Positions 10,252 through 33,127 of a stretch of 64,000 nucleotides of DNA are shown here, one piece after another. This DNA is from Candidatus Uhrbacteria bacterium RIFCSPLOWO2_01_FULL_47_25. Lineage in GTDB: Bacteria > Patescibacteriota > Patescibacteriia > GWA2-46-9. Position 1 is the stretch's first letter. Each line of letters opens with the position of its first letter. The stretch is from the NCBI GenBank assembly GCA_001791325.1, contig MGEK01000039.1:1175-65174 (forward strand), read 5' to 3'. The notes under the pieces are model-generated. The model was not told the origin of the DNA. It worked only from the letters and a program-made list of their open reading frames with translations, and made no database searches. The position numbers and the translations under genes are program-made.

Positions 10252-10254
10252 ACG

Positions 10255-16089: not shown

Positions 16090-16270
16090 AAGTCAGGTAC
16101 ACGCTGTTATGCGAAGTAGGTTACGGGATAAATTAATTAAAAATCGCCTAACGGCTCGCGGCTATGCGGAGTCCTGAAGGAATTGTATCACAATTCCTGA
16201 GGGATTACGTATACACACGCTGTTATATGATGTAATGAAAAATTCTTAATTCGCCGATAGGCGAATTATT
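16090..16270. repeat. attC-like modular palindromic repeat, copy A (short form)
   Basis: CACGCTGTTATGCGAAGTA ... CGCCTAACGGCTCGCGG-hairpin-CGTATACACACGCTGTTATATGATGTA, followed by the hairpin ATTCGCCGATAGGCGAAT. Confidence 0.6.
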
Positions 16271-17393
16271 TAATCGGGGCAATTTTTTTAAATTTTTTCA
16301 AAATTTCTCTTTCGAATTCGTCAATACCAAAAATCTTCTCAAATTCTTTTATAGTTTCTATGAGTTTCCCGTGCGGAAAAATGCCTTGCAGAAGTGGTTT
16401 ATTTTTAACTCGTGCTATCATTTCATCAGTTGGTTGCCAGTCGATTTTTGCCTTATCAAATAACTTTTTAAATTGATAACATTCTTGCTTCATTACCAAT
16501 AATTTTAACTTCTCAAAATTCATTTTGCGAATTTGTTTATAGATTTCGGTAGCTTTTATTGAAAATTCATCAACAAGGTTGTTTATTTCGTCTATTTTGA
16601 GAAATTCTCCATCGGCCCGTACAGCAAATTTTTTCATACCTGCCACAGGACTTTGTCCTTTAGAAATTGTATGACAGCCGACAAAGGATATTTTCCATAA
16701 AACATTTTCATAAATCGCGTAAATAACAACCTCTTTTACGTTTGCCAACAACTTTTCCGTCCATAATTCTTTCGGTCGGAGATTGGGGAAATGCCGGATT
16801 AATAGTACTTGATTAGATTTTAATGTGTATGGACCATAAACATCCCAACCGAGGTCAGTTACTACATCATTATAAAGCCCATGGACAAGCGAGCCAGCGG
16901 CCGTTATGAGCTGTCCAATTTTGCGAGCGCTTTGAATATCGGCTTTGTTCCATTTTATGTGAGATATGAACGTGCCAATTTCGGAGTTTGTATGACGTGG
17001 ATTCGATTTCAATGCGAAAGGATCGTCTGGACAACTTTCCTTGAGCATACGTGCGAAAAAATTTGCTACTGATTTATAATCCTTTTTATTCTCCGTTGGC
17101 TTAGCGTGGTAGGAAGGAATAAGTTTTATGAGAATTGCCCGCAGGTTAGAGGGTGGCGGGAGTATTCCTTTAATTTCACTAAAATGTTTTGATTCCAAAT
17201 CTAATTTTTTGATTGCATGCGCAATACTTGCTACCCATAAATCATACCAAAGAGGAAAAAAATGATAAAAATCAAGTGGTTGAAATCCCTCTAACACCTG
17301 CCCTTTAAAAACGTTTGAAGCGGATTTTGAAAATTCTTTAATCCAAGACATATACTTTTCCTTTTTGGCCGTCAACGCGGATGCGCATGCCAT
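16266..17393 (-). CDS. hypothetical protein (cassette ORF; 3' gene of a three-gene unit)
   Basis: 375 aa, no recognised family; its probable start (MSWIKEF) overlaps the upstream gene by a few nt. Confidence 0.45.
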   Translation of the reverse strand: MACASALTAKKEKYMSWIKEFSKSASNVFKGQVLEGFQPLDFYHFFPLWYDLWVASIAHAIKKLDLESKHFSEIKGILPPPSNLRAILIKLIPSYHAKPTENKKDYKSVANFFARMLKESCPDDPFALKSNPRHTNSEIGTFISHIKWNKADIQSARKIGQLITAAGSLVHGLYNDVVTDLGWDVYGPYTLKSNQVLLIRHFPNLRPKELWTEKLLANVKEVVIYAIYENVLWKISFVGCHTISKGQSPVAGMKKFAVRADGEFLKIDEINNLVDEFSIKATEIYKQIRKMNFEKLKLLVMKQECYQFKKLFDKAKIDWQPTDEMIARVKNKPLLQGIFPHGKLIETIKEFEKIFGIDEFEREILKKFKKIAPIK

Positions 17394-17667
17394 TTTTTAT
17401 CTTTTGGGTTGCTTCTTTGGTGTTGACAACGCAGGGAATACCCATCTCCCTGCTTAAAATAGCAGGATGTGAAGTGATGCCGCCAATATCCGTGATAATT
17501 GCCGCTGCCCTTACCATTGCGGTCACCATCGTCGGATCGGTTATCGTGGTTACTAAAATATTTCCCTCTTCAAATGAAGAAGGGTCGTCGCCAGAATAAA
17601 ATAATCTGGCGGTGCCTTCTATGTTTCCCGGGCTTGCGCCCATGCCTGTGAGTAATATTTTAGCCAT
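17338..17667 (-). CDS. stand-alone PEP-utilising enzyme mobile (swivelling phosphohistidine) domain protein
   Basis: GGITSHPAILSREMGIPCVV is the phosphohistidine swivel-domain signature of PEP synthase, PPDK and rifampin-phosphotransferase-type enzymes. Only 109 aa. Confidence 0.7.
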   Translation of the reverse strand: MAKILLTGMGASPGNIEGTARLFYSGDDPSSFEEGNILVTTITDPTMVTAMVRAAAIITDIGGITSHPAILSREMGIPCVVNTKEATQKIKNGMRIRVDGQKGKVYVLD

Positions 17668-17669
17668 AG

Positions 17670-18626
17670 TTATTGTAGTGAGTCGACTTTTTTAGGTTTT
17701 ATGTTGTTGGCTTTAATATACTCTTTTGCCAACTCAGTTAATGCGGGGATGTTCAGTTTGTATTCCTGTGTTTCTCCATTTTCACGTCGCAATATAATTG
17801 TAACTTGTTTTTCTCCTTGGTTATCGTTTTGTATCCGCAAATCCCAACTATCAAGTATTTTTAAACTCCCGCCAATTTCTTCCAAATTTTCAAAACCTAC
17901 TACGCTTTCTTTATTTTTTTCTCTTTCTATAGCATATTTCAGAAATGCTTCGGTTGATGTTTTGTGTCCCGAGCTAACCAGATTAATTGATTTACCGCCT
18001 GGCATATAATCTGGCAAATGGACAAGGCGATTAATCTTGAAAGCGACAGAAGCGGCTTGCTCCCGCGGACTCGGCGTTTCTTCATCTGGTCGCTTGTCGC
18101 CAAAAGAAAGATACCACTCTAAAGCTGGCTCTTCTGCATATTCTGCGGCTGCTTCCTGTTCATCGGGCGGTAGTTCATCAAATTTTTTTCCCGAATAATG
18201 CTCGTCGATGTATTGTTGTCTTTTTGGTAACATGATTGCATCGTACTGCTGCATAAATTTTTTGCTTGCGGCTAAGGCAGGCAGAGAAAAAAATGCCTGC
18301 GTAGTTTCTGACCTTTGTAAAATATTGGGGTTAACTTCTGCGGCTTGAAATACAGAAGTTAGTGTTTCTTTGGTTCTGTCTATTGCGGTAGCGTATGCCT
18401 TAGTAATTTTGCGACCAGCTAGTTGACTTTTTCCATAAGTTTCTGCGCGTTGTTTTCCTGTTTCTGAAATGCTTGACGTCGATAGTCCTTGAATTCCTTC
18501 CGCAAAGACTTGCCCAGACGCTTTTTGCGAATGGCGGACAAAAGTAAATCTTATTTCTGTATTATGCCCTCGTTCTTCTTTTAGTTCTTCAGGTTGTTCA
18601 ATTTGTGGTCTTCGTTCGTTAATCAT
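17670..18626 (-). CDS. hypothetical protein, possibly histidine-phosphatase (PGAM-like) superfamily
   Basis: The N-terminal RHSQ motif (FTFVRHSQKA...LSETGKQRAE) and a later SSGHKTSTEA segment resemble the RHG...H catalytic motifs of branch-1 histidine phosphatases; the similarity is weak. Confidence 0.4.
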   Translation of the reverse strand: MINERRPQIEQPEELKEERGHNTEIRFTFVRHSQKASGQVFAEGIQGLSTSSISETGKQRAETYGKSQLAGRKITKAYATAIDRTKETLTSVFQAAEVNPNILQRSETTQAFFSLPALAASKKFMQQYDAIMLPKRQQYIDEHYSGKKFDELPPDEQEAAAEYAEEPALEWYLSFGDKRPDEETPSPREQAASVAFKINRLVHLPDYMPGGKSINLVSSGHKTSTEAFLKYAIEREKNKESVVGFENLEEIGGSLKILDSWDLRIQNDNQGEKQVTIILRRENGETQEYKLNIPALTELAKEYIKANNIKPKKVDSLQ

Positions 18627-18659
18627 ATTGGTTGGTAAAAAATTTAAAAAAATTGCCCC

Positions 18660-19040
18660 GATTAATTTGCCCGATAGGGCAAAAAAAAATTTTCATTATT
18701 TCACATAACGGCTCGCGGCTATGCGGAGTCCTGAAGGAATTGTATCACAATTCCTGAGGGATTACGTATAGCCGCTGTTCGGCGATGTGCGCCGCGCGCA
18801 CGCCTGCCCGCCGAAGTATGGGGTGTTTGAATTCAGCATCTTAGTGAATAAGGAACGAAGGCGGGAGCCGAACAGCGGGAACCGCGAGCCGTTAGGCAAA
18901 ATGCGCGGCGCATTTTGCCTAACGTTCGCGTATATCTGATGTTTTGCGGAGCGTAGCGGAGCAAAATATGGGTGAGTATTTGGCGTTAGCCAAGCGCGAA
19001 CCAGATATACGCTGTTATATGATGTATGCTTTTCTTTTTG
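18660..19040. repeat. attC-like modular palindromic repeat, copy B (long form)
   Basis: TTGCCCGATAGGGCAA hairpin, then ACATAACGGCTCGCGG...GCTGTTCGGCGATGTGCGCCGCGCGCAC...GCCGAACAGCGGGAACCGCGAGCCGTTAGGCAAAATGCGCGGCGCATTTTGCCTAACGTTCGCGTATATCTGATGTTTTGCG...CAAAATATGGGTG...CCAGATATACGCTGTTATATGATGTA. Confidence 0.65.
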
Positions 19041-19145
19041 TCTCGCCTCAACGAGACCACTTTTCTATAATGAACAAATTTTATTTTTGTCTTGGCGTAG
19101 GGGCAGAGGGGCTGGGGGTGAATGCCACGAAGCCAAGACACCTTA

Positions 19146-20294
19146 TTATTCGTTGTCGGTGAATATATCAATGTAGTTCTTATACATATATGACTGCCTG
19201 TACTTCTTGCCCTTATCCTTTGGAATTAAAATACCCATTTTGATAAATCTATCAATAACTGTTTGTGCGCCAGCGCGAGTAAAGCCAGTCCATTTTTGAA
19301 TAACACTAACAGTTACAATGGGCTGCGCATATAATTTTGGTAACACCAAAGCTGCGCTTTCAGAAGCGCGTTTGCCAAGAGTTTGAATTTCGAGCAGGTC
19401 TTTCTCGCGCAAGATAGTGATTTTACCGACAGTATCTATTGCTTCGTTAGCAATTTCAATGACACCCTCAAGAAAGAAATCTATCCAATCCGATATGTTA
19501 CCATTATGGTAACTCAACAACTTTTCGTAATACAATTTTTGGTATTTTTTGAAAAAAGACGACAAAAACAAGACCGGCTTTTCCAAGTAGCCCTCTTTCC
19601 AAAGGTAAAAGGTAATCAACATTCTTCCGGTTCTGCCATTGCCATCCAAAAACGGGTGAATGGTTTCAAATTGAGCATGAATTAGTCCGGCTTTTATTAC
19701 GGTTGGTATTGCGTCGTCGGTATGAATAAACTTTTCCAAATCATTAAGCGCGCGATGCATTTCATCAACTGGCGGCGGAACAAAATTTGCGTTATCTGGG
19801 CGAGTACCGCCAATCCAATTTTGACTTTTACGGAATTCGCCCGGGTCGGAAAAATGTGTTGCGCGTGCTTTCTGCATAAGTTGCTTGTGCAGTTCACGAA
19901 TAAACCGGAGGACCATTGGAAAACCGTCTGTTCTCATTCTTTTTATTCCATAGTTGAGCGCCTTGATGTAGTGAAGAATGTCATCTACATCATCCGGTAT
20001 TTTCGTATCTATTTTTGCTTCCGCCGCGATTGCATCTATCATGGTCGCTCTCGTACCTTCAATTTGGCTGGAGGAAGCTGCGTCTTTTCGTAAATACATC
20101 AAAAGAAAAAAGTCAGCGTCCGGTAGTAATTTGGTAATGCCGTCCAATTTGCCAAGCAGGCGAGTGGCTTCATTGTTCTTTTTAAGGATATTTTGATCAA
20201 AACCAACCCCCTCCTTTGGTGGAAAGGGGTGCGGAATAAAAGCTTTAAATCCAGCAGGTTGCGCTTTGTATACGCCCATCTCAATGTTTTGCAT
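19146..20294 (-). CDS. Fic/DOC family protein (AMPylation-type Fic motif; class II with an N-terminal inhibitory motif)
   Basis: Canonical Fic motif IHPFLDGNGRTGR. An SxxxEG-type inhibitory motif (SSQIEG) lies N-terminal in the same chain. Confidence 0.85.
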   Translation of the reverse strand: MQNIEMGVYKAQPAGFKAFIPHPFPPKEGVGFDQNILKKNNEATRLLGKLDGITKLLPDADFFLLMYLRKDAASSSQIEGTRATMIDAIAAEAKIDTKIPDDVDDILHYIKALNYGIKRMRTDGFPMVLRFIRELHKQLMQKARATHFSDPGEFRKSQNWIGGTRPDNANFVPPPVDEMHRALNDLEKFIHTDDAIPTVIKAGLIHAQFETIHPFLDGNGRTGRMLITFYLWKEGYLEKPVLFLSSFFKKYQKLYYEKLLSYHNGNISDWIDFFLEGVIEIANEAIDTVGKITILREKDLLEIQTLGKRASESAALVLPKLYAQPIVTVSVIQKWTGFTRAGAQTVIDRFIKMGILIPKDKGKKYRQSYMYKNYIDIFTDNE

Positions 20295-20401
20295 AGTTTG
20301 TTTACATCTTTAGTTAATGTATACAAAGTATATCAGTTTGTATATTTTATGTCAAGTAAAGTTTACAAACTGCGAGGTGAATACCCCGAAGCCAAGACAC
20401 C

Positions 20402-21451
20402 TCATTTCGTTCTCTCAATAATTTTGACTATTCCATTATTAGCGTCTAATTCCACCAAATCGTTGTTTTGTAAAATTTTAGTGGCATTTTTTGTGCCAAC
20501 AATACAAGGAATATTTAGCTCTCTGCTGATTATAGCGGCGTGGCAGGCGATTCCGCCTTCGTTTGTTACTATACCCAAAACATTTTTCAAATAAGGCGTG
20601 AATTTTATGGAAGTCATCGGCGCCACCACTATTTTGTTGTCTAAATTATTCAGATCCGATTCTCTCAAGATCAGCCGAACTCGGCCTTTTATTAAACCCT
20701 TGTTGGCGACACTACCTTTAATAAAATCGGTTTGATTTTTTTCTTCTTTAATATTGCTTTTTAAAATTTGCTTGGCTTTTGCACCAGTTAAAATTTTTGT
20801 TTTACCGCCATTAACAGTTAAAAATAAAATAAGTTTTTTTCTTTCTCCTAAAATATTTTCTTTTATCTTTTTGTTATCTTTTAGCAAGTCAATTATTTCG
20901 TCTGGTAAGGCGTAAAATAATAGGTCGCTCTTAATTTTCTTTCTTTTTCCTATTTCTTGAAAAAAAAGTGGTAAAAAATCTTTCTGAATTTTTTCATAGT
21001 CAGCTATTCCTCTCGCTTCTCTTAATTTGTCTTTTATCGCCTGCGACAAATCATTCTCGTTTAATACCATGCCAAAATATTTTGGCAATGTAAAAAGAGG
21101 AAAATAATTTTGATAAATATTAACAAAATCAGTAAAAATTTTCAGCAGTTGTTTGTCTGTAAAATTATCTAATTTTTTACATTCTAAAAATTTTTTCAGC
21201 CTTTCGTTTTGCTTCTTCAGTTTGTCAAGTATTTTTTCAAAAATTTCAAGCTTCTTAGTTTTTAATTCATTCAGAAACTCATCATATTCGCTCTTTAAAC
21301 GCCATGAATGGACAATGCCATTTTCATGCATCATTAAAAAATTTTTCAGATTTTTTCCAATATTTTTTTTGTAATTCTTAAGATAGCCTATCATTATGCA
21401 ATAGGTTGTGAATAAATCGCATTCTCTCTCGGTAAATTTTGTCCATTCCAT
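20402..21451 (-). CDS. hypothetical protein with a C-terminal PEP-utilising enzyme mobile domain
   Basis: C-terminus NEGGIACHAAIISRELNIPCIVGTKNAT is the swivel-domain signature. The N-terminal ~240 aa is Lys/Asn-rich and unassigned. Confidence 0.6.
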   Translation of the reverse strand: MEWTKFTERECDLFTTYCIMIGYLKNYKKNIGKNLKNFLMMHENGIVHSWRLKSEYDEFLNELKTKKLEIFEKILDKLKKQNERLKKFLECKKLDNFTDKQLLKIFTDFVNIYQNYFPLFTLPKYFGMVLNENDLSQAIKDKLREARGIADYEKIQKDFLPLFFQEIGKRKKIKSDLLFYALPDEIIDLLKDNKKIKENILGERKKLILFLTVNGGKTKILTGAKAKQILKSNIKEEKNQTDFIKGSVANKGLIKGRVRLILRESDLNNLDNKIVVAPMTSIKFTPYLKNVLGIVTNEGGIACHAAIISRELNIPCIVGTKNATKILQNNDLVELDANNGIVKIIERTK

Positions 21452-21458
21452 AGGTTTG

Positions 21459-22268
21459 TTATAATTTAATTTTTTCTGTCCCGACTAGCTCTCTTTTTTT
21501 ATCAAAATGAAATTCCTCACAGAAATGTGGTACCTCATCAATTGAAAATTGACCTTGCTGTTTTTCATAGCTCATTTGGCCCAATGGGCCACTATGGCCA
21601 ACGGCAAACAAAATGATAGGCGACTGTCGCTGGTCGGATTGCGGTCTTTCAGACTTTGTAACAACGCTATGTACTAATTCCATAAACTGTTTATATCTTT
21701 CGGCCGCTTTTTTCGGCAGTTTTGTTTTTTCAAATTTAACATTGGGTTCATTCATTGCGTGAAAATATTGTAAAAGCGCTTCCATTTCGTTTATGGCATT
21801 TGGGCCCTTTGTCATTTCTGCGTACGGCTTCCAAGTGTCAGGGTGCGCGTCGGCTAGTAATTTAACTAGTTCTGTACTGTCAATTTCCAACATATCAATT
21901 CGTTTTGCATTTTTCTTGTCTTGAGATTCGCCTTGTGCTTCCAGTTGAGCCAAGCGAGCCGTGGCAAGATGTCTGGTCAGTTGCGTGCGGTCTTTTCCGC
22001 TATCCATCACAACTAAAATACTCTCTTTGGGCAATTGTGCGTAAAGATTGTCAGCTAACCGTAAACTGCGGATAATACCGTCTAATTTTAGTGGTGCTTC
22101 TCCCAATTTAACAACTTCCGGAAAATCGTTTTCCAAAACAGATATAACCAAGTTAAATTCTTTCGCCGTCAATTTTGATTTCAATTCCTCCGGATTCAAT
22201 TTCCACGTTCCTTTGTCGGCATGACGAGTGATTATAGATTCTTGATTTTCAAGAAATTTTTCAGTCAT
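21459..22268 (-). CDS. hypothetical protein (co-oriented immediately upstream of the swivel-domain protein)
   Basis: 269 aa; no confident family. Confidence 0.45.
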   Translation of the reverse strand: MTEKFLENQESIITRHADKGTWKLNPEELKSKLTAKEFNLVISVLENDFPEVVKLGEAPLKLDGIIRSLRLADNLYAQLPKESILVVMDSGKDRTQLTRHLATARLAQLEAQGESQDKKNAKRIDMLEIDSTELVKLLADAHPDTWKPYAEMTKGPNAINEMEALLQYFHAMNEPNVKFEKTKLPKKAAERYKQFMELVHSVVTKSERPQSDQRQSPIILFAVGHSGPLGQMSYEKQQGQFSIDEVPHFCEEFHFDKKRELVGTEKIKL

Positions 22269-22384
22269 ATTTTTGAGTTAGTAATATTTATAAAATCGTT
22301 TTCTGAGCGACGAGAGGAGCGAAGAAAACACCATATACCCCCCTCTTAAAAAATAAAAATAAAATTTATTCATTATAGAAAAGT

Positions 22385-22580
22385 GTTAGGCGTTAGCCGT
22401 AAAAAGAAAAGCATATTTCGTATAACGTTTAAGTGTATGCGAAGTTGAAAAACCCCGCTGCCTTGATTTAATTGTATCAAAAAAAGCGGGGTTTTTCAAC
22501 TTGGGTGAAAGACATGGCACAATTCTTTAGTTACATTAAAAAGTGTGCCAGTCCTAAACCGCATACACTTTGTTAGGCGA
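22385..22580. repeat. attC-like repeat, diverged copy H
   Basis: GTGTTAGGCGTTAGCC ... CGTATAACGTT-GTGTATGCGAAGT-[16-bp perfect stem AGTTGAAAAACCCCGC/GCGGGGTTTTTCAACT]-TGGGTGAAAG ... CCGCATACACTTTGTTAGGCGATGTA. Confidence 0.5.
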
Positions 22581-22626
22581 TGTAAAAACAAGTTCTTTCC
22601 TTAATTCGGGAATAAGGAAAATTATA

Positions 22627-22884
22627 TTAAGCGCCCTTCTCAGCAAGTCTTTTTATTACTGCTTTGTCAATAACATCCCTCACTACGGAGTGTATTTTTT
22701 TCCCGCCATCTTCAGTGAACAATGCTTCGACTTTGGGGAACCATGGCTTGTCTTCGCACATTTTTCTTGCATCACCAGACTCCCATCCCAAAAAATTATT
22801 AAATGCCGCTAGCTCACCATCAGTTAATTGATTAAGAGCCATGTTCGCAGCAGCCTCCAACTGCGGTGGTTGTTCTCTGTTCAT
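22627..22884 (-). CDS. hypothetical protein (cassette ORF)
   Basis: 85-aa ORF bounded by attC-like repeats on both sides. Confidence 0.4.
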   Translation of the reverse strand: MNREQPPQLEAAANMALNQLTDGELAAFNNFLGWESGDARKMCEDKPWFPKVEALFTEDGGKKIHSVVRDVIDKAVIKRLAEKGA

Positions 22885-22974
22885 AGGTTTGTATGATTAA
22901 AATTTATAAGTGTCTTTTGTATAAATAGCTTAATATAATTTTCGTTAAAATTCAATAGAACTTGTTTTTATTTC

Positions 22975-23330
22975 ACCTAAGGTCCGCGGCATATCCCTGC
23001 AGTGACGCGAGCCCCGCCCTACGGGGCGAGTGGCATTGCGGATATGCCGCTGTTATGCGATGTGCGCCGCGCGCACGCCTGCCCGCCGAAGTATGGGGTG
23101 TTTGAATTCAGCATCTTAGTGAATAAGGAACGAAGGCGGGAGCAGAACAGCGGGAACCGCGGACCTTATGCAAAATGCACGGCGCATTTTGCATAACGTT
23201 TCGGCATATCTGATGTTTGCCGTAGCGTAGCGAAGGCAAATATGGGTGAATAAATTTTGCATTCCTTAGCATTATTATAGCGCAAAATTTATGAACCAGA
23301 TATGCCGTGTTATGCGATGCTGCAAAAATA
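22975..23330. repeat. attC-like modular palindromic repeat, copy C (long form)
   Basis: AAGGTCCGCGG...GCTGTTATGCGATGTGCGCCGCGCGCAC...CAGAACAGCGGGAACCGCGGACCTTATGCAAAATGCACGGCGCATTTTGCATAACGTTTCGGCATATCTGATGTTTGCCG...CAAATATGGGTG...CCAGATATGCCGTGTTATGCGATGC. The outer stem is the covariant GGTCCGCGG/CCGCGGACC. Confidence 0.65.
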
Positions 23331-23336
23331 TTTTAT

Positions 23337-24110
23337 TTATTTGTAAAGATAACCTACTCCTAGAATCATTGATTGTCCAAATTTTTTCTTATCTTTATTA
23401 TCGACAAACGTTAGCAACGGTACCCCCTTCTTTTTACACTCCTCATGTTGATAAATGTTTTGACCCAAAATTATTTTTTTCCACGCTTTATTTACTTCCT
23501 CGTATGCGATAATGTCGTGAAATGCGGCCAGCCCATTTTTATCCAAAAAATAATTATAGTTTTTCCAATCATTTAATACCGACTTACATGTATGATCTCC
23601 ATCAATAAATAAAAAATCCACCTTCCTATTGCCCAAATACTCTTTTAGGTCTTCTCGTGCTTTTTTAGAGGTAGACTTCCTTCTAATATGCAAATAGTTA
23701 TTTTTTAGATAAAAATGCCTAAGTTTATTAATCGTGTCTTCATATGTATAGAACTGTTTTTCATATTTAGATCCCGTTATATAAGGATCAATAGTGATGA
23801 AGGTTGTTCCCGAATTACCAAGAGCTGCAGATAATAGGTAAATAAAGCCACCACGTGCCGATCCTATTTCTAAAATAATTTTGGGTCTTCTTCTTCTTAT
23901 TTTTTCTAAGGTGTGAACAATCTCAAGCGGGGTTTGCCCCACGTCTGGACACTCAAAATTTGGACAATCAATTCTTAGTTTTTCTGTAATGTATTTTATT
24001 CTTTTGTTCATAATTAAATATTTTTGCAGTTTCACATAACGTCCGGGTATCATGCGCTCGTACTCGTATGGCGCATATACCCTGTTAGGCGATGTAAATA
24101 TTTTGCTCAA
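23337..24110 (-). CDS. class I SAM-dependent methyltransferase (TylF/MycF-like Methyltransf_24-type family)
   Basis: Motif I ILEIGSARGG and LFIDGDHT. The track ORF begins with TTG and overlaps attC-like copy D, so the true start is probably an internal ATG (MIPGRY or MNKRIK). Confidence 0.6.
   Translation of the reverse strand: MSKIFTSPNRVYAPYEYERMIPGRYVKLQKYLIMNKRIKYITEKLRIDCPNFECPDVGQTPLEIVHTLEKIRRRRPKIILEIGSARGGFIYLLSAALGNSGTTFITIDPYITGSKYEKQFYTYEDTINKLRHFYLKNNYLHIRRKSTSKKAREDLKEYLGNRKVDFLFIDGDHTCKSVLNDWKNYNYFLDKNGLAAFHDIIAYEEVNKAWKKIILGQNIYQHEECKKKGVPLLTFVDNKDKKKFGQSMILGVGYLYK
24030..24100. repeat. attC-like repeat, copy D (minimal ~70-bp form)
   Basis: CACATAACG-TCCGGGTATCATGCGC-loop-GCGCATATACCC-TGTTAGGCGATGTA. 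Confidence 0.55.
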
Positions 24111-24177
24111 TGAGATAAAAAATGAGAGTTGGGCGAGAGGGTTGGGTTTCCTCTCGCGCCCGTGAGCTGATTGTACA

Positions 24178-24411
24178 CTACGCAGATTGATCGAGGCGAC
24201 GCAAGCTCTTCACGGTAACGCCATGGGAGACCGTTTCGCCATCCCAGACGATCGGTACCTCCCAAGGATCGTAGAGACATTTCGGGCCTCCGAATGCTGC
24301 TTGCACCGTCCCGATTTTCTTCGCGTCGACGTGCTGAACTCGAAGCCCCGCAGGAAAATCATCGTCGATTTGTGCCATGAGTGACTCCTTACTGTCTGTG
24401 GTGGTGCCCAA
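24178..24411 (-). CDS. hypothetical protein (visibly GC-richer cassette ORF)
   Basis: 77-aa ORF whose composition differs from the AT-rich neighbours; flanked by attC-like repeats. Confidence 0.35.
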   Translation of the reverse strand: MGTTTDSKESLMAQIDDDFPAGLRVQHVDAKKIGTVQAAFGGPKCLYDPWEVPIVWDGETVSHGVTVKSLRRLDQSA

Positions 24412-24439
24412 CTCTCATTTTTTATCAATATCAATGGAC

Positions 24440-24745
24440 AAAATATTTATTTCGCCTAACGGCTCGCGGCTATGCGGAGTCCTGAAGGAATTGTATCACA
24501 ATTCCTGAAGGATTACGTATAGCCGCTGTTAGGCGATGTGCGCCGCGCGCACAAGCATAACAGCGGGAACCGCGAGCCGTTATGCAAAATGCGCGGCGCA
24601 TTTTGCCTAACGTTCGCGCATATCTGATGTTTGCGGCTGGTATAATATAACGCCGATAGGCGTTTTACCAGCCGCAAATATGGGTGGAGGCTTGGCGTCA
24701 GCCAAGCCGTAGCCAGATATGCGCTGTTATATGATGTAACAATAC
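24440..24745. repeat. attC-like modular palindromic repeat, copy E (long form)
   Basis: CGCCTAACGGCTCGCGG-hairpin-GCTGTTAGGCGATGTGCGCCGCGCGCAC-AAGCATAACAGCGGGAACCGCGAGCCGTTATGCAAAATGCGCGGCGCATTTTGCCTAACGTTCGCGCATATCTGATGTTTGCGGCTGG...CCAGCCGCAAATATGGGTG...CCAGATATGCGCTGTTATATGATGTA. Confidence 0.65.
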
Positions 24746-24793
24746 ATTCTTAACTCCGACCGAAGAGAGGAGTTATGGAAATCAGGGTAATTT

Positions 24794-25288
24794 TTAATCA
24801 AAAAATTCGCAACGTTTATTGTACAGTAGCTCATTAACCTCAACCATAATTGCTTTTAACTCCGCAAAAAGTGCAAGGATGGGATGACCGTCGGAAACCT
24901 CGTAATGAGGGTAACCACTGGCAGGTGTTATTAGTGTGAGGCTTTTTGCGGCTTCCTGTATTTGTTTGTGAAGAGCATCGGCCCTGTCAGCTAGTTGATT
25001 GTATCTTTCTCCTTTTTCTTTTTGCTCTGCCTCCAAAGCGTCTATATCAACCTTTGGAATGAGGCGAGCTATTTTAACTTGCTCCACCTCCGCATATGTG
25101 TGCTTGCCTCTAACTTCTTTTAATTCTTCTGGTGTTGTGTTTTGATGACCACGCCTTCTGCTAGGTTCAAGCGCATAAATTAGATCACCTGCTGTCCCGA
25201 TCCAGTCATTCCAAAGGTGGCCTGAAAATTGTTTCCGTTTGAATGGTTCGTAATATTCTGGTGGCGGTTTAAGGTCTTCTGTAGACAT
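24794..25288 (-). CDS. hypothetical protein (cassette ORF)
   Basis: 164 aa, no family recognised; bounded by repeats. Confidence 0.45.
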   Translation of the reverse strand: MSTEDLKPPPEYYEPFKRKQFSGHLWNDWIGTAGDLIYALEPSRRRGHQNTTPEELKEVRGKHTYAEVEQVKIARLIPKVDIDALEAEQKEKGERYNQLADRADALHKQIQEAAKSLTLITPASGYPHYEVSDGHPILALFAELKAIMVEVNELLYNKRCEFFD

Positions 25289-25354
25289 ATTTTTTGATTA
25301 CAATAAAATTGCCCTGATTTCCAGCCGCCGCGTCAGCGGCGGAAAGAATGTATT

Positions 25355-25460
25355 GTTATTTCATATAACGTTCGCATATATCTGATGTTGCGACTGAAAG
25401 GAGCGATATGGACAAAACGAAGCGGAGCCAGATATACGCTTGTTGTGCGATGTTAGCGAG
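25355..25460. repeat. attC-like repeat, copy F (partial: 3' modules only)
   Basis: CATATAACGTTCGCATATATCTGATGTTGCG...GAGCCAGATATACGCTTGTTGTGCGATGTTAG. Confidence 0.5.
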
Positions 25461-25463
25461 CAT

Positions 25464-25745
25464 TCATCGATAGACGCACGGATAGCACCGACTCGTTTCC
25501 GTATTGCAGGAGTGCGACACTTTTTCTCCCGGAATGAATTTTGCCCCCGTAAAAGAGGCACACCAGCAGTCATCATCTGATTGACACACCGTGTTTTCAT
25601 TAGTTTCTGAAATTTCCACATTCACTGCCTCGGGCTGAGGCTGTACGAATTGAAATCTAAGAAAAAGTGCCGCTCCGATTGCTACCACAATCAGAATCAC
25701 TATTCCTAACGCCGTTTTAATTATCATAGTGTTTATATAATGCAA
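25464..25745 (-). CDS. hypothetical small Cys-rich membrane-anchored/secreted protein (cassette ORF)
   Basis: N-terminal hydrophobic anchor followed by a Cys-rich C-terminal domain (CQSDDDCWC...CNTETSRCYPC). Confidence 0.4.
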   Translation of the reverse strand: MHYINTMIIKTALGIVILIVVAIGAALFLRFQFVQPQPEAVNVEISETNENTVCQSDDDCWCASFTGAKFIPGEKVSHSCNTETSRCYPCVYR

Positions 25746-25784
25746 AACCTTTTTAAATCAGCAGAACAAGCTCGCCAATTTCGT

Positions 25785-26075
25785 ACAAGGTCCGCGGCAT
25801 ATCCTTGCAGTGACGCGAGAGCGCGTACGCTCGAGCGGCATTGCGGATATGCCGCTGTTATGCGATGTGCGCCGCGCGCACGAGCAGAACAGCGGGAACC
25901 GCGGACCTTATGCAAAATGCGCGGCGCATTTTGCATAACGTATCGGGATAAGCGAAGTTTTTACGAAGTGAAACGAAGTAAAAATTTGGGTGAAGGGCAA
26001 ATGCAACTCATTAATGTAAGTAATAAATCGCATTTGCCCTGAACCGCTTATCCCGTGTTAGGCGATGAATTTTTG
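25785..26075. repeat. attC-like modular palindromic repeat, copy G
   Basis: CAAGGTCCGCGG...GCTGTTATGCGATGTGCGCCGCGCGCACGAGCAGAACAGCGGGAACCGCGGACCTTATGCAAAATGCGCGGCGCATTTTGCATAACGTATCGGGATAAGCG...CGCTTATCCCGTGTTAGGCGATGAA. Confidence 0.6.
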
Positions 26076-26081
26076 AAACTA

Positions 26082-26390
26082 TTAGACGGGTAATTTTTTA
26101 ATATCGTTGTGCGGATGTAGATTGATACGAATTGCATCAACTATATCAATTTTACTCTCGTCGATACCACCGACATCTGGAAGGCTGCTTAATTCATGTT
26201 CTATATCTGTTTGTGTCAATTCGTCCTTTTCTAATTTTTTTAAAAGACGCTTTTTTGCTTGTTCCGCCACGCCCAAAGTAATGGATAGTCTATGCTCTAA
26301 TTTTGGAGGCGGAAGTTCTCTCAATATTTTGTCTAAAATTGGCGTGGCGGAAGCAGCCTGCTCCCTTCCTTCGTGTCCCATATTTTCCAT
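26082..26390 (-). CDS. hypothetical protein (integrase-proximal cassette ORF)
   Basis: 102 aa; first minus-strand ORF next to the divergently transcribed recombinase. Confidence 0.4.
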   Translation of the reverse strand: MENMGHEGREQAASATPILDKILRELPPPKLEHRLSITLGVAEQAKKRLLKKLEKDELTQTDIEHELSSLPDVGGIDESKIDIVDAIRINLHPHNDIKKLPV

Positions 26391-26538
26391 ATGATTTATG
26401 TTAGAAATTAGTTAATAGTTTCAAAAATTTTTCGCCTAACTCGTTTATATGCGACGTGTTTTCGTATATGATACACAATATTGCTTAATGAACGAATATC
26501 GTTTATAATGACAATATGTCATTATAATATCACTAAAA
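26391..26538. promoter_or_regulatory. divergent intergenic region between first cassette and recombinase (candidate attI / cassette promoter region)
   Basis: AT-rich. Contains GCCTAACTCG and CGTGTT boxes resembling the repeat cores, plus -10-like TATAAT/TATGAT hexamers on both strands. Confidence 0.3.
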
Positions 26539-27354
26539 ATGATAGATGCATATTTAAAAAGAACGGAAGACGAATTGAGATTGCGCAATTACAGCCCCAA
26601 GACTATAAAAAGCTACCTAGCCTGCCTCGCTGGTTACCTGCGCGCGAAGAAGAGCAATTTAGAATCCATTGACACTGATTTTATCAAGCGGTTTTTGTTG
26701 AGTAAAAAGGACGCGGGAAAATCCCCACGAACGATCAATCAGAGCTTGCAAGCAATTAATTTCTTCTGTCGCAATGTTTTAAAAAGTCATTGCGATATAG
26801 ATATTAAATTCGCCAAAACCCCTAGCAAGTTGCCGATAGTATTATCGCGCGATGAGATAAAGTTGATCATTGATTCCATTAGCAACGAGAAACATTGTTT
26901 AATGATCGCACTGGCTTATGCTGGTGGATTGCGGGTAAGCGAGATCATCAATCTAAGAATTAAAGATTTGAATATAAACGAGCTGACGATCCACATTAAA
27001 GGCGCCAAGGGGAATCGCGACCGTCTTACTATATTATCTGATAAGTATAAAAATAGGCTTGAAAAAATCATTATCGGCGGGAACCCCAATGATTATGTTT
27101 TCGCGAGCGAACGCGGCGGTAAACTAACAGAGCGCACGGCCCAAAAGATTTTTGAAAATGCGCGGCGAAAAGCGAATATAACCAAAGACGCGACGTTTCA
27201 CTCCTTGCGGCACAGTTTTGCCACCCATTTATTGGAGAACGGCGTGGATGTGCGCTATGTGCAGGAATTATTGGGGCATCAAAATATCAGAACGACCCAG
27301 CTTTACACGCAAGTCACGAATCCACAGCTTAAAAATATCAAGAGTCCGCTATAA
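26539..27354 (+). CDS. tyrosine site-specific recombinase (Xer-like; no IntI-specific insertion)
   Basis: Catalytic residues are present: R in LAYAGGLRVSE, K in KGAKGNRDR, HxxR in HSLRHSFATHLL, H in LLGH, and the Y nucleophile in TTQLYTQV. The spacing between the catalytic K and the HxxR box is ~64 aa, so the ~35-aa IntI-specific insertion is absent. Confidence 0.85.
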   Translation: MIDAYLKRTEDELRLRNYSPKTIKSYLACLAGYLRAKKSNLESIDTDFIKRFLLSKKDAGKSPRTINQSLQAINFFCRNVLKSHCDIDIKFAKTPSKLPIVLSRDEIKLIIDSISNEKHCLMIALAYAGGLRVSEIINLRIKDLNINELTIHIKGAKGNRDRLTILSDKYKNRLEKIIIGGNPNDYVFASERGGKLTERTAQKIFENARRKANITKDATFHSLRHSFATHLLENGVDVRYVQELLGHQNIRTTQLYTQVTNPQLKNIKSPL

Positions 27355-27458: not shown

Positions 27459-29201
27459 ATGTTTACACAGCGACAACTTGAACACATTTTAATTGGTTCT
27501 AAGACCTTCTCTCCTGAAGATTTTAAGAAGCACGTAGCGGCGGCGGAAGCCAAAAAACAAGAGATGGAAGACTATTTGACTTCCGAACACATCCTCTCGG
27601 AGGATAATTTATATGAAACAGCGGCCAGTCTTTTTCAGTTGCCATTTGTTAAAATTAAAAATCAACCGATCAGAAAAGACGTTTTATTCCTGATCCCAGA
27701 GCCGCTCGCTCAACATTACCAAATAGCAGCCATTGACACAGAAGGTGATAATATTTTAAAAATCATAACCACTGACCCAGAAAATTTACAAGCCTTTGAA
27801 TTTCTCAAAAAAAAGACTGGCCGCGACCTTTCCATATCCATTACCACGCCGAGCGCCTTCAAAGAAATAATGAAGCAATACCACAAGAGCCTGCAGGCAG
27901 AATTTCAGGCATTCACTAACATTGACAAGGCCAAAAGTGAAGGAAAGGCCGGTGGAGAAAAAAATCTTCAGGAATTGGCTGAAGATCTCCCGATCATACG
28001 CATCGTTGATACAATGATGGAATACGCAATTTTTGAAGGAGCGTCAGATATACATATTGAGCCGGAAGAACAGCAAATTGACATACGCTACCGCCTTGAT
28101 GGAATACTAAAAAGCGTAATGACGCTTCCCAAGGCGGTACAATCTGGCGTTATAGCCAGAATTAAGGTTTTATCAAATCTAAAGCTGGATGAACATCGTT
28201 TGCCCCAAGATGGACGCTTTAAAATACAAACGCGCGATTACAACATTGCTTTTAGGGTTTCTATAATCCCCGCTTTTGATGGTGAAAAGATAGTGCTGCG
28301 TTTGCTCAATGAAAGCGCACAAGTGCGTTCACTTGAACAAATTAGCATGCAGTCTAATCAATTCGCGATTCTCAAAAAAAATATTCACAAACCGCACGGC
28401 ATGATTCTGGTCACCGGTCCCACTGGTTCGGGAAAAACAACTACTCTCTATACGATCCTGAATGTTCTCAACGTTCCTGAAGTCAATATTTCAACCATTG
28501 AAGACCCCATTGAATACCGCATGCCGCACGTCAATCAAAGCCAAGTTAATCCCAAAATAGGCTACACTTTTTCTATCGGCCTAAGAGCGCTCCTGCGTCA
28601 AGATCCTAATATTATCATGGTTGGTGAAATACGCGATACGGAAACCGCCGAAATAGCGGTGAACGCCGCCATGACCGGACACCTCTTATTGTCCACCCTG
28701 CACACCAATGACGCCGTGACGGCCATTCCACGACTTTTCGATATGGGCATTCCTCCGTTCCTGGTGGCCTCCACAACCAATATGATTATGGCCCAACGGC
28801 TAGTTCGCAAAATCTGCCCCTATTGCATTACCAGCTATAATCTTGGCAAGGCGGCGCTTGAAGAATTAACCCGCCAATTTGATCTCAAAACTATCTTGGG
28901 CATGCTTATTCAACAAGGCAGTGTCACAAAAAACATAAAATCATTTGAGACTCTTCTATTTTACAGGGGCAAGGGCTGCAAACAATGCAACAATGACGGC
29001 TATCGTGGCCGAGCCGGCATCTATGAAGTGTTGGATATCTCTAAGGAATTAAACGATGCCATTGTCAAAAAAGCCACTCGCGAAGACTTAATGACCATTG
29101 CCCGACAACAAGGCATGCTCACAATGGTTGAAGACGGATTCCTGAAGGCCAAGGCTGGCATCACAACAATTGAGGAAGTGCTTCGCGTTACGCAGGAATA
29201 G
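27459..29201 (+). CDS. pilB: type IV pilus assembly / type II secretion ATPase PilB/GspE
   Basis: Walker A GPTGSGKTTTLY, Asp/His boxes, and the C-terminal tetracysteine motif (CPYC...CKQC). Confidence 0.9.
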   Translation: MFTQRQLEHILIGSKTFSPEDFKKHVAAAEAKKQEMEDYLTSEHILSEDNLYETAASLFQLPFVKIKNQPIRKDVLFLIPEPLAQHYQIAAIDTEGDNILKIITTDPENLQAFEFLKKKTGRDLSISITTPSAFKEIMKQYHKSLQAEFQAFTNIDKAKSEGKAGGEKNLQELAEDLPIIRIVDTMMEYAIFEGASDIHIEPEEQQIDIRYRLDGILKSVMTLPKAVQSGVIARIKVLSNLKLDEHRLPQDGRFKIQTRDYNIAFRVSIIPAFDGEKIVLRLLNESAQVRSLEQISMQSNQFAILKKNIHKPHGMILVTGPTGSGKTTTLYTILNVLNVPEVNISTIEDPIEYRMPHVNQSQVNPKIGYTFSIGLRALLRQDPNIIMVGEIRDTETAEIAVNAAMTGHLLLSTLHTNDAVTAIPRLFDMGIPPFLVASTTNMIMAQRLVRKICPYCITSYNLGKAALEELTRQFDLKTILGMLIQQGSVTKNIKSFETLLFYRGKGCKQCNNDGYRGRAGIYEVLDISKELNDAIVKKATREDLMTIARQQGMLTMVEDGFLKAKAGITTIEEVLRVTQE

Positions 29202-29207
29202 TTCTCT

Positions 29208-30290
29208 ATGCCCATTTTAACCATGCCGTCTATTAATTTTCGCATTTTAAAAAGACGAGTTAAGACGACACAAAAAATATTCTTGATGCAGCAAATGCGG
29301 ATTATGGCCAGGGCTGGCGTACCCCTGACCACCACCATCCGAACCCTGCAAGCCCAAACTGGCTCTCGCCGTCTCAAAACAATTCTCACTAATGTCGCTG
29401 ATAAGATAGAAAAGGGGCAAACTCTGTCGCAAGCTCTATTGCCATATATCTCTGATTTTGGTGAATTGATGATCAATATGATCGCCGCCGGCGAGGCCAG
29501 TGGTCGTCTGGAGGAAGTATTTGGACAAATTTATTTACAAATGAAAAAAGATCATGAAATCATCTCGCGAGTACGCGGAGCTCTTATGTATCCAGCCATT
29601 GTAGTATTAGCCATGATCGGCATCGGTATAGGCATGATTGTTTTTGTGATTCCTAAATTAACGGATATTTTTAAAGAATCTAATGTTGCCCTACCCTTGC
29701 CGACAGTCATTCTAATATCCGTGAGTGATTTTATTGTGAACAATGGCTTGCTGGTAGGCATTGGCACAGTCGCTATAATCAGTGCGTTCATCTGGACCAT
29801 TCATCGTCCAAAAGGAAAATACGTTTGGCATTGGTTTTTGCTAAGGTTACCCATTGTGGGTTCAATTATACAAGAAATTAATTTGGCTCGCTTTGCCCGA
29901 ACAACTAGCTCTTTTTTAAAAACTGACATTCCTATAGTCAAAACTTTGACAACTACCGCTCATGTTTTGAGCAATGTTCATTACCAAAATGCCTTGTTGG
30001 CCGCCTCTGAACGCATCGTTAAGGGAGTCACTTTAAAAGAGGCGCTGGAACCATACCCAAATTTATTTAATCCAACTATAATGCAGATGATCGCAGTGGG
30101 TGAACAATCCGGATCATTGGATGATATTCTTGCTGAAGCGGCGGAATTTTATGAAACAGAAGTGTCGCAAACTATGACTACCCTCCCCTCCCTCCTTGAA
30201 CCGGTCTTAATGGTGATATTGGGCATTGGAGTAGGCGGCATGGCCGTAGCCATTATGATGCCCCTTTATACTCTGACTCAAGCTTTTTAA
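29208..30290 (+). CDS. pilC: type IV pilus inner-membrane platform protein PilC/GspF
   Basis: 360 aa with two T2SS-F repeats and three TM segments, immediately downstream of pilB. Confidence 0.85.
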   Translation: MPILTMPSINFRILKRRVKTTQKIFLMQQMRIMARAGVPLTTTIRTLQAQTGSRRLKTILTNVADKIEKGQTLSQALLPYISDFGELMINMIAAGEASGRLEEVFGQIYLQMKKDHEIISRVRGALMYPAIVVLAMIGIGIGMIVFVIPKLTDIFKESNVALPLPTVILISVSDFIVNNGLLVGIGTVAIISAFIWTIHRPKGKYVWHWFLLRLPIVGSIIQEINLARFARTTSSFLKTDIPIVKTLTTTAHVLSNVHYQNALLAASERIVKGVTLKEALEPYPNLFNPTIMQMIAVGEQSGSLDDILAEAAEFYETEVSQTMTTLPSLLEPVLMVILGIGVGGMAVAIMMPLYTLTQAF

Positions 30291-30295
30291 ACGAT

Positions 30296-31351
30296 ATGTT
30301 GTTCGCCCTAAAAAATGCACCCATAGCGTTTGGCCTTGATATTTCAGACACCACGGTCAAAATTGCCCAGTTGCGTCGCTCTGGACGATCTTTTGTTGCC
30401 GAACTTATAAAAGAAATTATTATTCCTCAAGGACTTGTTAAAAACGGAGAGATACAAAATGTCCAACAACTGGCATCGGAATTAACAAAATTACTTTCTC
30501 CGTTCAGAAAACAACTCACAGATGGGGTGATAGCCTCTTTGCCAGAATCAAAAACATTCATTCAAACAATCATCATTCCCAAGGGCAATGAATCAACTCT
30601 GCCCGTGCAACTAGCGGAATCTCTGCCGGAATACTTGCCTCTGCCGCTTGAAGAAATGTACCAAGATAACGCAATGATTAGTGAAACAAATAATAATTGG
30701 CAAATTGTTATTGGCGCAGCTCCCAAAACAATCGTTGATAACTATATTCAGCTACTGGAAAGTATGCATTTAATTCCGGTTGCTTTAGATATTCAAGCCA
30801 TGGCCATGGCCAGAACATTGCTGCCCGTCAAGGAGCCGCAATACCGCACACGGGCCATAATAGATATTGGACGGCATCACGCTAGTCTCATCGTACATGA
30901 CCAGAATACAATCCAGTTTACTATGAGCCTGCCAATCTCGGGCGATCAAATTACAGACAACATCGCCAAGGAGTTAAATTTATCCAGCGATCAGGCCGAA
31001 AAAGCAAAAATTATTTGCGGCCTTGACCCAAATAAATGTGAGGGTGTCCTGCGCACCGTACTGGAAGGTATAATTGACAACCTTGTTAAAAAAATCAGCG
31101 AGGCGCTAGATTTTTATCAAGATCACTTTATAAATTCGCGCGACATTGAAGAAATAATTCTCACCGGAGGAGGCGCTTACTTATTAAATCTTGATCAAGT
31201 GCTTTCGGAAATTCTTAGAGTGCCCACAAAATTGGGTGATCCCTGGGAAAATACGCATATCACGTCATTCCCCAACCTAAAGGCGCCGCTGCAATATTCC
31301 ACGGTTATTGGCTTGGCCTTAAGGGGAGCTAATGGAGAAGAGACTGTATGA
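30296..31351 (+). CDS. pilM: type IV pilus assembly protein PilM (actin-like ATPase fold)
   Basis: 351 aa; FGLDISDTTVKIAQL N-terminus typical of PilM; position in the operon. Confidence 0.75.
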   Translation: MLFALKNAPIAFGLDISDTTVKIAQLRRSGRSFVAELIKEIIIPQGLVKNGEIQNVQQLASELTKLLSPFRKQLTDGVIASLPESKTFIQTIIIPKGNESTLPVQLAESLPEYLPLPLEEMYQDNAMISETNNNWQIVIGAAPKTIVDNYIQLLESMHLIPVALDIQAMAMARTLLPVKEPQYRTRAIIDIGRHHASLIVHDQNTIQFTMSLPISGDQITDNIAKELNLSSDQAEKAKIICGLDPNKCEGVLRTVLEGIIDNLVKKISEALDFYQDHFINSRDIEEIILTGGGAYLLNLDQVLSEILRVPTKLGDPWENTHITSFPNLKAPLQYSTVIGLALRGANGEETV

Positions 31352-31893: not shown

Positions 31894-31902
31894 TTTAGCG
31901 TC

Positions 31903-32466: not shown

Positions 32467-32469
32467 TTT

Positions 32470-33052: not shown

Positions 33053-33127
33053 AGCTATTGACTAAATATATCAATAAAAATATAATATTGCTAATCAGCT
33101 AATAAGCTAATCCCTAATTCCTAACTT

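Follow-up and report, generated by a model that had tools for sequence, protein, structure and literature searches.

The stretch of DNA analysed here (the window: 64,000 nt of contig MGEK01000039.1, Candidatus Uhrbacteria bacterium RIFCSPLOWO2_01_FULL_47_25) contains a tyrosine recombinase gene (26539..27354, plus strand), an attI-like site upstream of it (26430..26499, minus strand) and, beyond this site, a cassette array (16146..26440, minus strand) of about 12 attC-bounded cassettes, all of which are transcribed in the direction leading away from this gene. A divergent intergenic region of 148 nt (26391..26538) separates the gene from the first cassette open reading frame (ORF) and holds the attI-like site and a palindrome, TTATAATGACATATTGTCATTATAA. 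The GC content of the array (0.36-0.42) is below that of its flanks, and its GC skew is near zero. Together with the corresponding loci of other Patescibacteria (Candidate Phyla Radiation, CPR), these elements probably represent an integron-type platform whose integrase lacks the I2 or additional domain of integron integrases. For comparison, 65 loci encoding relatives of the recombinase (numbered with the prefix L) were taken from species-representative genomes, nearly all of them CPR metagenome-assembled genomes (MAGs).

The recombinase and its relatives

The recombinase gene encodes an IntI-like protein of 271 aa, which ends in KNIKSPL and has no I2 domain. Its six catalytic residues, R132 (LRVSE), K157 (KGNRDR), H221 and R224 (HSLRH), H247 (LLGH) and Y256 (LYTQV), lie in columns that are invariant across IntI1, VchIntIA, XerC, XerD and the CPR homologues in a MAFFT alignment. 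The IntI1 reference used there has 100% identity with intI1 as annotated on plasmids, VchIntIA comes from the alignment of PDB 2a3v, and XerC and XerD are the E. coli proteins. The protein matches PF00589 (E = 1.4e-44), and the IntI/Xer-type N-terminal SAM-like domain PF13495 was also found. The distance from the catalytic lysine to the HxxR motif is 64 residues, compared with 106 in IntI1, 107 in VchIntIA and 68 in XerC. Between the K-bearing beta-hairpin and the HxxR helix, IntI1 and VchIntIA have insertions of ~26 aa and ~11 aa (HTHSTDPRSGV), neither of which is present in the window protein or in XerC/D, where the alignment has gaps. The TIGR02249 profile and PDB 2a3v each match the protein in two stretches that skip the insertion region, and the AlphaFold2 model (predicted local distance difference test, pLDDT, of 83.9) contains the canonical helices only, with no extra helix from the beta-hairpin to the HxxR helix. 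The absence of the IntI additional domain is confirmed by sequence, profile and predicted structure.

Apart from the insertion, the protein is, by sequence comparison, closer to IntI and archaeal XerA than to XerC/D. It is 34% identical to IntI1 and 33% to VchIntIA, against 28% for XerC/D, and it shares with IntI, and not with XerC/D, the absence of two Xer-specific insertions, an extra residue before KGxxDR and the C-terminal SPL. The best NCBIfam match is a near miss to the archaeal XerA model NF040815 (216.4 bits, cut-off 220); the integron-integrase models are below their cut-offs (TIGR02249, 206.7 vs 265 bits; NF011946, 117.5 vs 435 bits) and the XerC and XerD models far under theirs (TIGR02224, 182.6 vs 335.15 bits; TIGR02225, 189.5 vs 329.6 bits). 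The top Foldseek matches were XerA 5hxy (E = 5.6e-16) and VchIntIA 2a3v (E = 7.5e-16, with 312 alignment columns for 271 residues), and XerA structures were also the top PDB matches by sequence (E = 2e-40). Archaeal XerA (P. abyssi 4a8e, T. acidophilum 5hxy; NF040815) has a similar size and a two-domain fold without insertions; however, it acts on a chromosomal dif, whereas the GC skew does not switch at the site described here, beyond which lies a cassette array. The SPL C-terminus was not seen in the aligned XerA fragments, whose C-termini were only partly covered.

An earlier reading of the same DNA, made without database searches (the sequence-only reading), had reported a complete set of catalytic residues, a K-to-HxxR interval of about 64 residues in a protein of 271 aa, and the absence of the IntI-specific domain. 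All of these are borne out: the alignment with IntI1, VchIntIA, XerC and XerD, the profiles and the predicted structure agree, and no insertion equivalent to the IntI domain is present in the alignment or the model. The label "Xer-like" given there understates the affinity of the protein to IntI.

The family is large, with more than 7,600 proteins at E <= 1e-20, the best 120 of which are 266-298 aa long and 69-87% identical. The few source-named relatives are assigned to Pacebacteria, Moranbacteria, Wolfebacteria, Magasanikbacteria and other Patescibacteria. Clustering at 50% gave 2,197 clusters at E <= 1e-30; among the best 150 clusters, 121 have both motifs recognisable, with a K-to-HxxR distance of 62-71 in 119 of them (80 and 85 in the other two), and the C-terminus is SP[LIFVM] in 123 of the 150. 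No IntI-type insertion was found among the best 270 relatives retrieved. Sequence identity is at least 70% between relatives in different CPR classes, and one MAG contains two divergent copies (L001, L014), both with an attI of their own. No homologue of more than 60% identity was found in the phage and plasmid collections.

I2-less relatives that are more distant (~39% identity) are frequent on Firmicutes and Bacteroidota plasmids (Clostridium estertheticum/tagluense, Chryseobacterium, Agathobacter, Persicobacter; records H12-H21), where they may be multimer-resolution enzymes. These carry the annotation "site-specific tyrosine recombinase/integron integrase", so the name given by NCBI to this clade already combines an Xer-like with an integron label. 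Relatives from Leptospira/Leptospiraceae and Bacteroidales (L061-L064; P0157-P0270) are 36-45% identical and have long N-terminal extensions (350-590 aa in total); they are also without the IntI insertion, end in SP[LI], and gave no match to the attC model described below at the four loci checked (L061-L064). An archaeon-labelled record of 1.39 Mb (L006; MCBF01000001.1, "Candidatus Altiarchaeales archaeon IMC4") encodes a 66%-identical recombinase (gene 10001-10822) with a typical attI (GTTATCC) and a matching R'' box (GGATAAC) 140 nt beyond, which could be a cross-domain transfer or a binning or scaffolding artefact. Matches labelled Gammaproteobacteria, Bdellovibrionales and Actinomycetota look like mis-binned CPR contigs.

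The attI-like site, cassette junctions and attC hairpins

The attI-like site was matched by an nhmmer profile at 26499-26430 (E = 8e-14) and is conserved across CPR loci. Read on the minus strand, it has two arm copies, one distal and direct (TTCGTTCAT, 26496-26488) and one inverted (TATACGAA, 26468-26461), then the L arm (GTCGCATAT, 26455-26447), a 7-nt spacer (AAACGAG, 26446-26440) and the R arm (TTAGGCGAA, 26439-26431). Its core is made of two inverted 9-bp arms flanking the 7-bp spacer (TTCGCATAT-AAACGAG-TTAGGCGAA), with the two further arm copies upstream, and the crossover would fall at the spacer edge, between G26440 and T26439. The R box GTTAGGC (G at 26440, minus strand) comes after TTCGCATAT-like arm motifs, and its complement, GCCTAAC, is at 26434-26440 on the plus strand. 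The attI1 site has L, R, DR1 and DR2 sites, which the four-arm attI of the window parallels.

In the related loci, the shared upstream site, read away from the gene, has the form TTCGnATAAtAtACAA-N~14-TTATACGAAAACAnTTCGCATAAaAACGA|GTTAnnnGAAAT. A profile of 26 attI-like sites gave 46 matches (E <= 1e-3) in ~0.9 Mb, one per locus, and all 46 are on the cassette strand, ending 36-121 nt before the recombinase start codon. The attC sites were sought with a covariance model built from nine truncated "mini-attCs" of the window, which is also the source of the attC bit scores given here. Within the window the model matched only at 16140-26066, and in the 65 loci all of its 43 matches (E <= 1) were upstream of the gene on the minus strand, even with downstream DNA twice as abundant as upstream DNA (467 kb vs 240 kb). 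Among the 31 CPR loci whose upstream DNA exceeded 1 kb, 21 had a match. Sites with very long loops escape the model, and the window sites at 26063, 23315 and 22578 were matched only partially, so that having no match does not mean having no site, and the matchless loci were re-examined by R-box matching. In five of these ten, an R'' box complements the R box of the attI at the same locus, and in four of the five it stands in the usual context CATC-NNNTAAC-A-...ATATC.... Hand-written attC finders (R''/R' pairing plus ViennaRNA energy thresholds) were discarded, having recovered three of the 12 sites or given dozens of matches outside the array. No Rfam family was matched anywhere in the window.

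The chromosomal neighbourhood of the recombinase gene is variable. The pilB gene downstream of it in the window recurs in two loci only, and in CP011209.1, a complete Wolfebacteria genome of 984 kb, a major facilitator superfamily (MFS) transporter comes after the gene, and attI and 5-6 cassettes come before it. Because the neighbourhood is not conserved while the array recurs, the conserved unit is that of gene, attI and cassettes. GC skew is negative on both sides of attI across the 64-kb window, with no switch at the site. A XerC/D orthologue at a fixed chromosomal position is excluded by the sub-cut-off XerC/D scores, the non-conserved neighbourhood and the absence of a skew switch. In 16 listed loci (L002, L004, L005, L008, L013, L017, L019, L020, L031, L034, L037, L048, L049, L051, L054 and L074) the contig ends 100-310 nt upstream of the gene, at or just beyond attI, which suggests that repeat-rich arrays systematically break short-read assemblies; such platforms are probably under-represented in MAGs.

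An integron cassette circle is opened at G|TT of its attC. The first six bases of a cassette opened in this way (TTRRRY) come from its own attC and therefore complement its own 3' R'', not the R'' of the upstream attC. Over the 12 window cassettes, the first TTNNNN shows 6 mismatches to the cassette's own R'' and 24 to that of the physically adjacent attC, and the agreement with the own end was reached by none of 20,000 random reassignments. The attI-proximal TTNNNN matches the R'' of the first detected attC in L003, L016, L025, L027, L033, L038, L039, L042, L044 and L045, as exemplified by GTTGTCG/CGACAAC in L025. Judged by this signature, the window cassettes are circularly permuted units joined at G|TT, as in integrons.

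The window attC boxes are of the type R'' = NNNTAAC and R' = GTTANNN, and the architecture common to the sites of the window and of the other genomes is (T)ACATC-[NNNTAAC]-A-[L'' with G.ATAT core]-loop-[AAC(A/T)TC...ATAT.C..]-(G/A)AAC-G|TTANNNGAAAT. Across 45 aligned attCs, 95% of the L''/L' helix is paired, and 10 of its 11 pairs show compensatory changes, which demonstrates selection for intramolecular pairing; the variable R-box positions often have no partner, as would be expected once cassettes have been shuffled. The loop between L'' and L' measures 11-84 nt, and the stems are preserved throughout. Most L stems are without bulged bases, and conserved extrahelical bases were not found in these attCs. 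What is conserved is an asymmetry, a 1 x 4-nt internal loop that separates the R and L boxes and sets a single A against the four nucleotides (G/A)AAC. In canonical attCs, extrahelical bases dock into I2 (PMC7790495).

Regarding the site and the array, the sequence-only reading had pointed to the GCCTAAC box of the 148-bp intergenic region as part of a candidate attI and had suggested, conditionally, that the enzyme services the adjacent array, with an ordinary XerC/XerD orthologue conserved in relatives without the array as the alternative. The box is there, and as the R box of a conserved multi-arm site it supports the attI assignment. The service of the array is likewise strongly favoured by the comparison of loci, in which the gene-attI-attC unit recurs in fixed orientation with G|TT junctions, and the ordinary orthologue fails on the variable neighbourhood, the lack of a skew switch and the low XerC/D scores.

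Interpretation of the locus and competing explanations

The locus resembles classical integrons in having a recombinase gene divergent from the array, a multi-repeat attI ending in GTTRRRY, attC hairpins of the R''-L''...L'-R' type with RYYYAAC/GTTRRRY boxes, a G|TT crossover with the permutation signature, and mostly small ORFs of unknown function together with some ORF-less cassettes. The protein has in common with IntI1 and VchIntIA (TIGR02249) the indel characters, the SPL C-terminus and 33-34% identity; however, it is without their I2 helix or additional domain (26 + 11 aa). Further differences from classical integrons are the 1 x 4-nt internal loop and the partly sequence-conserved L box of the attCs, which have no conserved extrahelical bases, and the host range, which here is CPR. 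On these comparisons, the 271-aa recombinase is quite likely the integrase of an integron-type cassette platform widespread in Patescibacteria, cognate to the attI ~100 nt upstream and to the attC cassettes beyond.

In the mechanism proposed for this integrase, monomers would bind the 9-bp arms of consensus TTCGCNTAA in the manner of Xer and Cre. The attI would act as a double-stranded core, with its two inverted arms, 7-bp spacer and two extra upstream arm copies, and the attC as a single folded strand, in which the R''/R' duplex would recreate the R arm and the L''/L' duplex, with its conserved G.ATAT core, would be the second arm. One strand would be exchanged at G|TT with the duplex attI, and the junction would be resolved by replication and not by a second exchange. 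The 1 x 4-nt loop and a sequence-specific reading of the L box would set the strand choice, silence the L-bound subunits and prevent the second exchange, replacing the device of I2 and extrahelical bases and making I2 unnecessary. By analogy, the closest mechanistic precedent would be the XerC-driven integration of CTX phage single-stranded DNA (ssDNA) at dif1, in which the enzyme is also insertion-free, the folded strand mimics a duplex core and one strand pair is exchanged (PMC7790495), as may be the case here.

Several points weigh against this integrase reading, apart from those that its rivals bring with them. According to the literature, cassette recombination requires I2, and deleting this domain abolishes the activity of IntI1 (PMC7790495). 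The evidence for cassette servicing by the 271-aa enzyme is wholly comparative, and the folding strand and the single-strand exchange are deductions from the permutation signature and the covariation. The attC L arm is not in convincing register with the attI L arm, which leaves the arm-recognition model incomplete. The comparison covered gene loci, and these CPR genomes may encode a canonical IntI or another Xer elsewhere, or the enzyme may have a dual role in dimer resolution. In a rough, bootstrapped neighbour-joining tree, the IntI pair nests among the I2-less proteins, branching after XerA; this placement inside the I2-less family, being without usable support values, is a lead only.

The most serious alternative, which is compatible with an integron-type platform, is a housekeeping single-recombinase Xer, that is, a CPR dimer resolvase like XerS, XerH or XerA, for which the upstream site would be dif and the cassettes would be similar to integrative mobile elements exploiting Xer (IMEX), using a folded mimic to hijack dif in the way that CTX phage exploits XerC; the array could then be a by-product, or the enzyme could have both roles. 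This explanation is considered unlikely, even if the best NCBIfam match (archaeal XerA, 216.4 bits vs 220), the XerA structures at the top of the PDB hits and the 9-7-9 inverted repeat of the attI core, like that of dif or lox, speak for it. In XerS and XerH systems, too, the site adjoins the gene. The same GC-skew sign on both sides means, however, that the site is not at the terminus, and the gene is ~118 kb from the record start in the 984-kb Wolfebacteria genome, which is a weak argument. The two divergent copies with their own attI in one MAG (L001, L014) and a site with four arm copies, attI-like and not a simple two-arm dif, also count against a dimer resolvase, and identity of at least 70% across CPR classes with variable neighbourhoods suggests a mobile unit. 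The cassette platform would stay real even if the enzyme were such a Xer. The pdif modules of Acinetobacter plasmids are gene modules bounded by recombinase sites that accumulate side by side, comparable to a cassette array. From these and from XerC/D-IMEX, the window differs in its single recombinase gene with sub-cut-off XerC/D scores, in its attC-like hairpins with integron core sequences instead of dif copies, and in its ordered array, unidirectional from one attI. The CPR family probably corresponds to the "Cand" subgroup of simple tyrosine recombinases, which are also Xer-related and from candidate phyla and were suggested to replace Xer; however, Smyshlyaev et al. (2021) treat this subgroup as a presumed Xer substitute and report no cassette arrays (PMC8138268). 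For their part, Escudero et al. propose such a single-stranded IMEX (ss-IMEX) stage before the acquisition of I2 (PMC7790495), which also fits a housekeeping Xer.

It is less probable still that recombination at the cassette junctions takes place between double strands only and that the attC palindromes are terminators, cruciforms or sites of replication pausing. That the enzyme has no known hairpin-recognition device and that attI has an ordinary duplex core layout both count towards such a process, and the partial conservation of the L box (G.ATAT) suggests that its sequence is read. A duplex attC, however, has no second arm resembling an inverted R arm at the proper spacing, and L''/L' covariation at 10 of 11 pairs would go unexplained. 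The stems, too, are preserved over loops of 11 to 84 nt, and R'' matches the cassette's own distant 5' end, a match that makes no sense unless R'' is paired with R' once the cassette is excised or folded. The array could finally be a relic or a bystander, immobile or else a cluster of attC sites lacking integron-integrases (CALIN) served in trans by a canonical IntI elsewhere, with an unrelated recombinase next to it. This is very improbable given the dozens of independent genomes with fixed spacing and orientation (46/46 attI, 43/43 attC), an attI arm motif that is conserved along with the protein, and the absence of the insertion from all of the best 270 relatives retrieved.

The additional I2 domain defines integron integrases in the field and in standard detection software (the intI_Cterm profile, IntegronFinder). 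Cassette capture is considered to depend on it, and it is seen as the innovation enabling ssDNA recombination (PMC7790495, PMC4889954); it occurs in no other protein according to Escudero et al., who speculated on an I2-less ancestor hijacked by ss-IMEXs (PMC7790495), and archaeal IntIs were described as having it by Ghaly et al. (PMC9668308). The IntegronFinder 2.0 survey does not mention CPR, and no report of integrons in CPR/Patescibacteria or of I2-less integron integrases was found in the open-access PMC and bioRxiv literature, subscription-only papers being outside this scope. Within the same literature, an integron platform whose integrase fails the defining IntI test appears to be undescribed, and cassette capture may be feasible without the IntI additional domain.

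The results point to a large, naturally occurring family of recombinases that lack I2 and are coupled to attI and attC arrays with integron-type junctions. If confirmed, current tools would be missing integrons across a major part of bacterial diversity, labelling them as CALINs or Xer genes, and these loci would offer a natural experiment on hairpin recombination, and on how a second strand exchange is avoided, without I2. They would also be candidates for the ancestral state of integrons and a gene-exchange platform in the genome-reduced, episymbiotic CPR bacteria, of which the host of the window is an uncultured, ultra-small member. As to evolutionary polarity, the I2-less state could be either ancestral or secondarily reduced. 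A tentative and rather doubtful proposal is that these are "proto-integrons", in which folded-attC recombination arose in an I2-less Xer/XerA-like enzyme, and that canonical IntI later gained I2 within the SPL-tailed family. In that case I2 would be a refinement and not the enabling innovation, and DNA architecture (the 1 x 4-nt loop) could suffice for strand selection and for blocking the second exchange.

Individual attC sites, cassettes and flanking features

The 12 attC sites are all on the minus strand and are numbered here from attI outwards. The first, attC 1 (25933..26063), has R'' GCCTAAC, L'' CGGGATAAGCG and L' CGCTTATCCCG, a GATAC bulge and R' GTTATGC. It is followed by attC 2 (25783..25863; 32.6 bits), which belongs to an ORF-less cassette and has R'' GCATAAC with a variant R', CTTGTAC, by attC 3 (25363..25448; R'' GCACAAC, R' GTTATAT; 45.2 bits) and by attC 4 (24605..24732; R'' ATATAAC, R' GTTAGGC; 53.3 bits). 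Another ORF-less cassette has attC 5 (24454..24534; R'' GCCTAAC, R' GTTAGGC; 46.5 bits), and attC 6 (24034..24090; R'' GCCTAAC, R' GTTATGT; 51.8 bits) is the shortest, with 57 nt. The boxes of attC 7 (23191..23315) are R'' GCATAAC and R' GTTATGC, and those of attC 8 (22975..23058; 38.7 bits), also of an ORF-less cassette, are R'' GCATAAC and a variant R', CTTAGGT. The site attC 9 (22420..22578) has R'' GCCTAAC and R' GTTATAC, and attC 10 (18917..19020; R'' ATATAAC, R' GTTAGGC; 55.8 bits) closes a three-gene cassette that includes a Fic gene. A further ORF-less cassette has attC 11 (18703..18783; R'' GCCGAAC, R' GTTATGT; 42.4 bits). At the distal end of the array, attC 12 (16146..16228; R'' ATATAAC, R' GTTAGGC; 17.3 bits) has an L'' that does not pair with L', and looks degenerate or chimeric.

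Most cassette proteins have no Pfam family, the exceptions being a methyltransferase, a phosphoenolpyruvate (PEP)-utiliser domain, Fic and His_Phos. Two minus-strand stretches between consecutive attCs contain three genes each: 19146-22426 encodes a 269-aa protein, a PEP-utiliser-domain protein and a Fic protein, and 16266-18709 encodes a His_Phos protein, a 109-aa protein and a 375-aa protein. Either these are multi-gene cassettes or their internal attCs have decayed.

A GC-rich, ORF-less mini-cassette of ~150-215 nt is present in four copies on the minus strand (25790-25939, 24461-24611, 22982-23197 and 18710-18923). It starts with GTTAKGC-AAAATGCGCCGCGCATTTT-GCATAA(C/G), followed by a nested, very stable attC (132 nt, -48 kcal/mol), and two of the copies have a 63-nt insertion. 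Related mini-cassettes were found in L027 (1520-1702), in L071 (5720-5930, 6510-6700 and 7710-7895) and, in five copies, in L036; the relatives in other CPR genomes are located directly at attI or scattered in arrays, with three copies in the complete Wolfebacteria genome. The mini-cassette has no Rfam match, and a promoter, a terminator, a small RNA (sRNA) or a recombination helper are possibilities for its role.

The intergenic region 26391-26538 presumably carries the promoters of both the recombinase gene and the cassettes. One sigma-70-like match was found on the cassette strand (26522-26495), such matches being no commoner than in shuffled sequence. Between attI and the start codon, at ~26503-26527, the perfect palindrome TTATAATGACATATTGTCATTATAA overlaps -10-like TATAAT boxes on both strands, and some other loci have looser ACA-N-TGT palindromes in this position, such as TACAATTAAATTGTA in L004. 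The palindrome may be an operator for the integrase and cassette promoters; canonical intI promoters are described as LexA-controlled in PMC3108266.

Directly downstream of the recombinase gene (27459-33412, plus strand) there is a type IV pilus-like gene set with a PilB-like ATPase of 580 aa, a PilC-like protein of 360 aa and small ORFs, which, as read from the translations, would fit a CPR genome.

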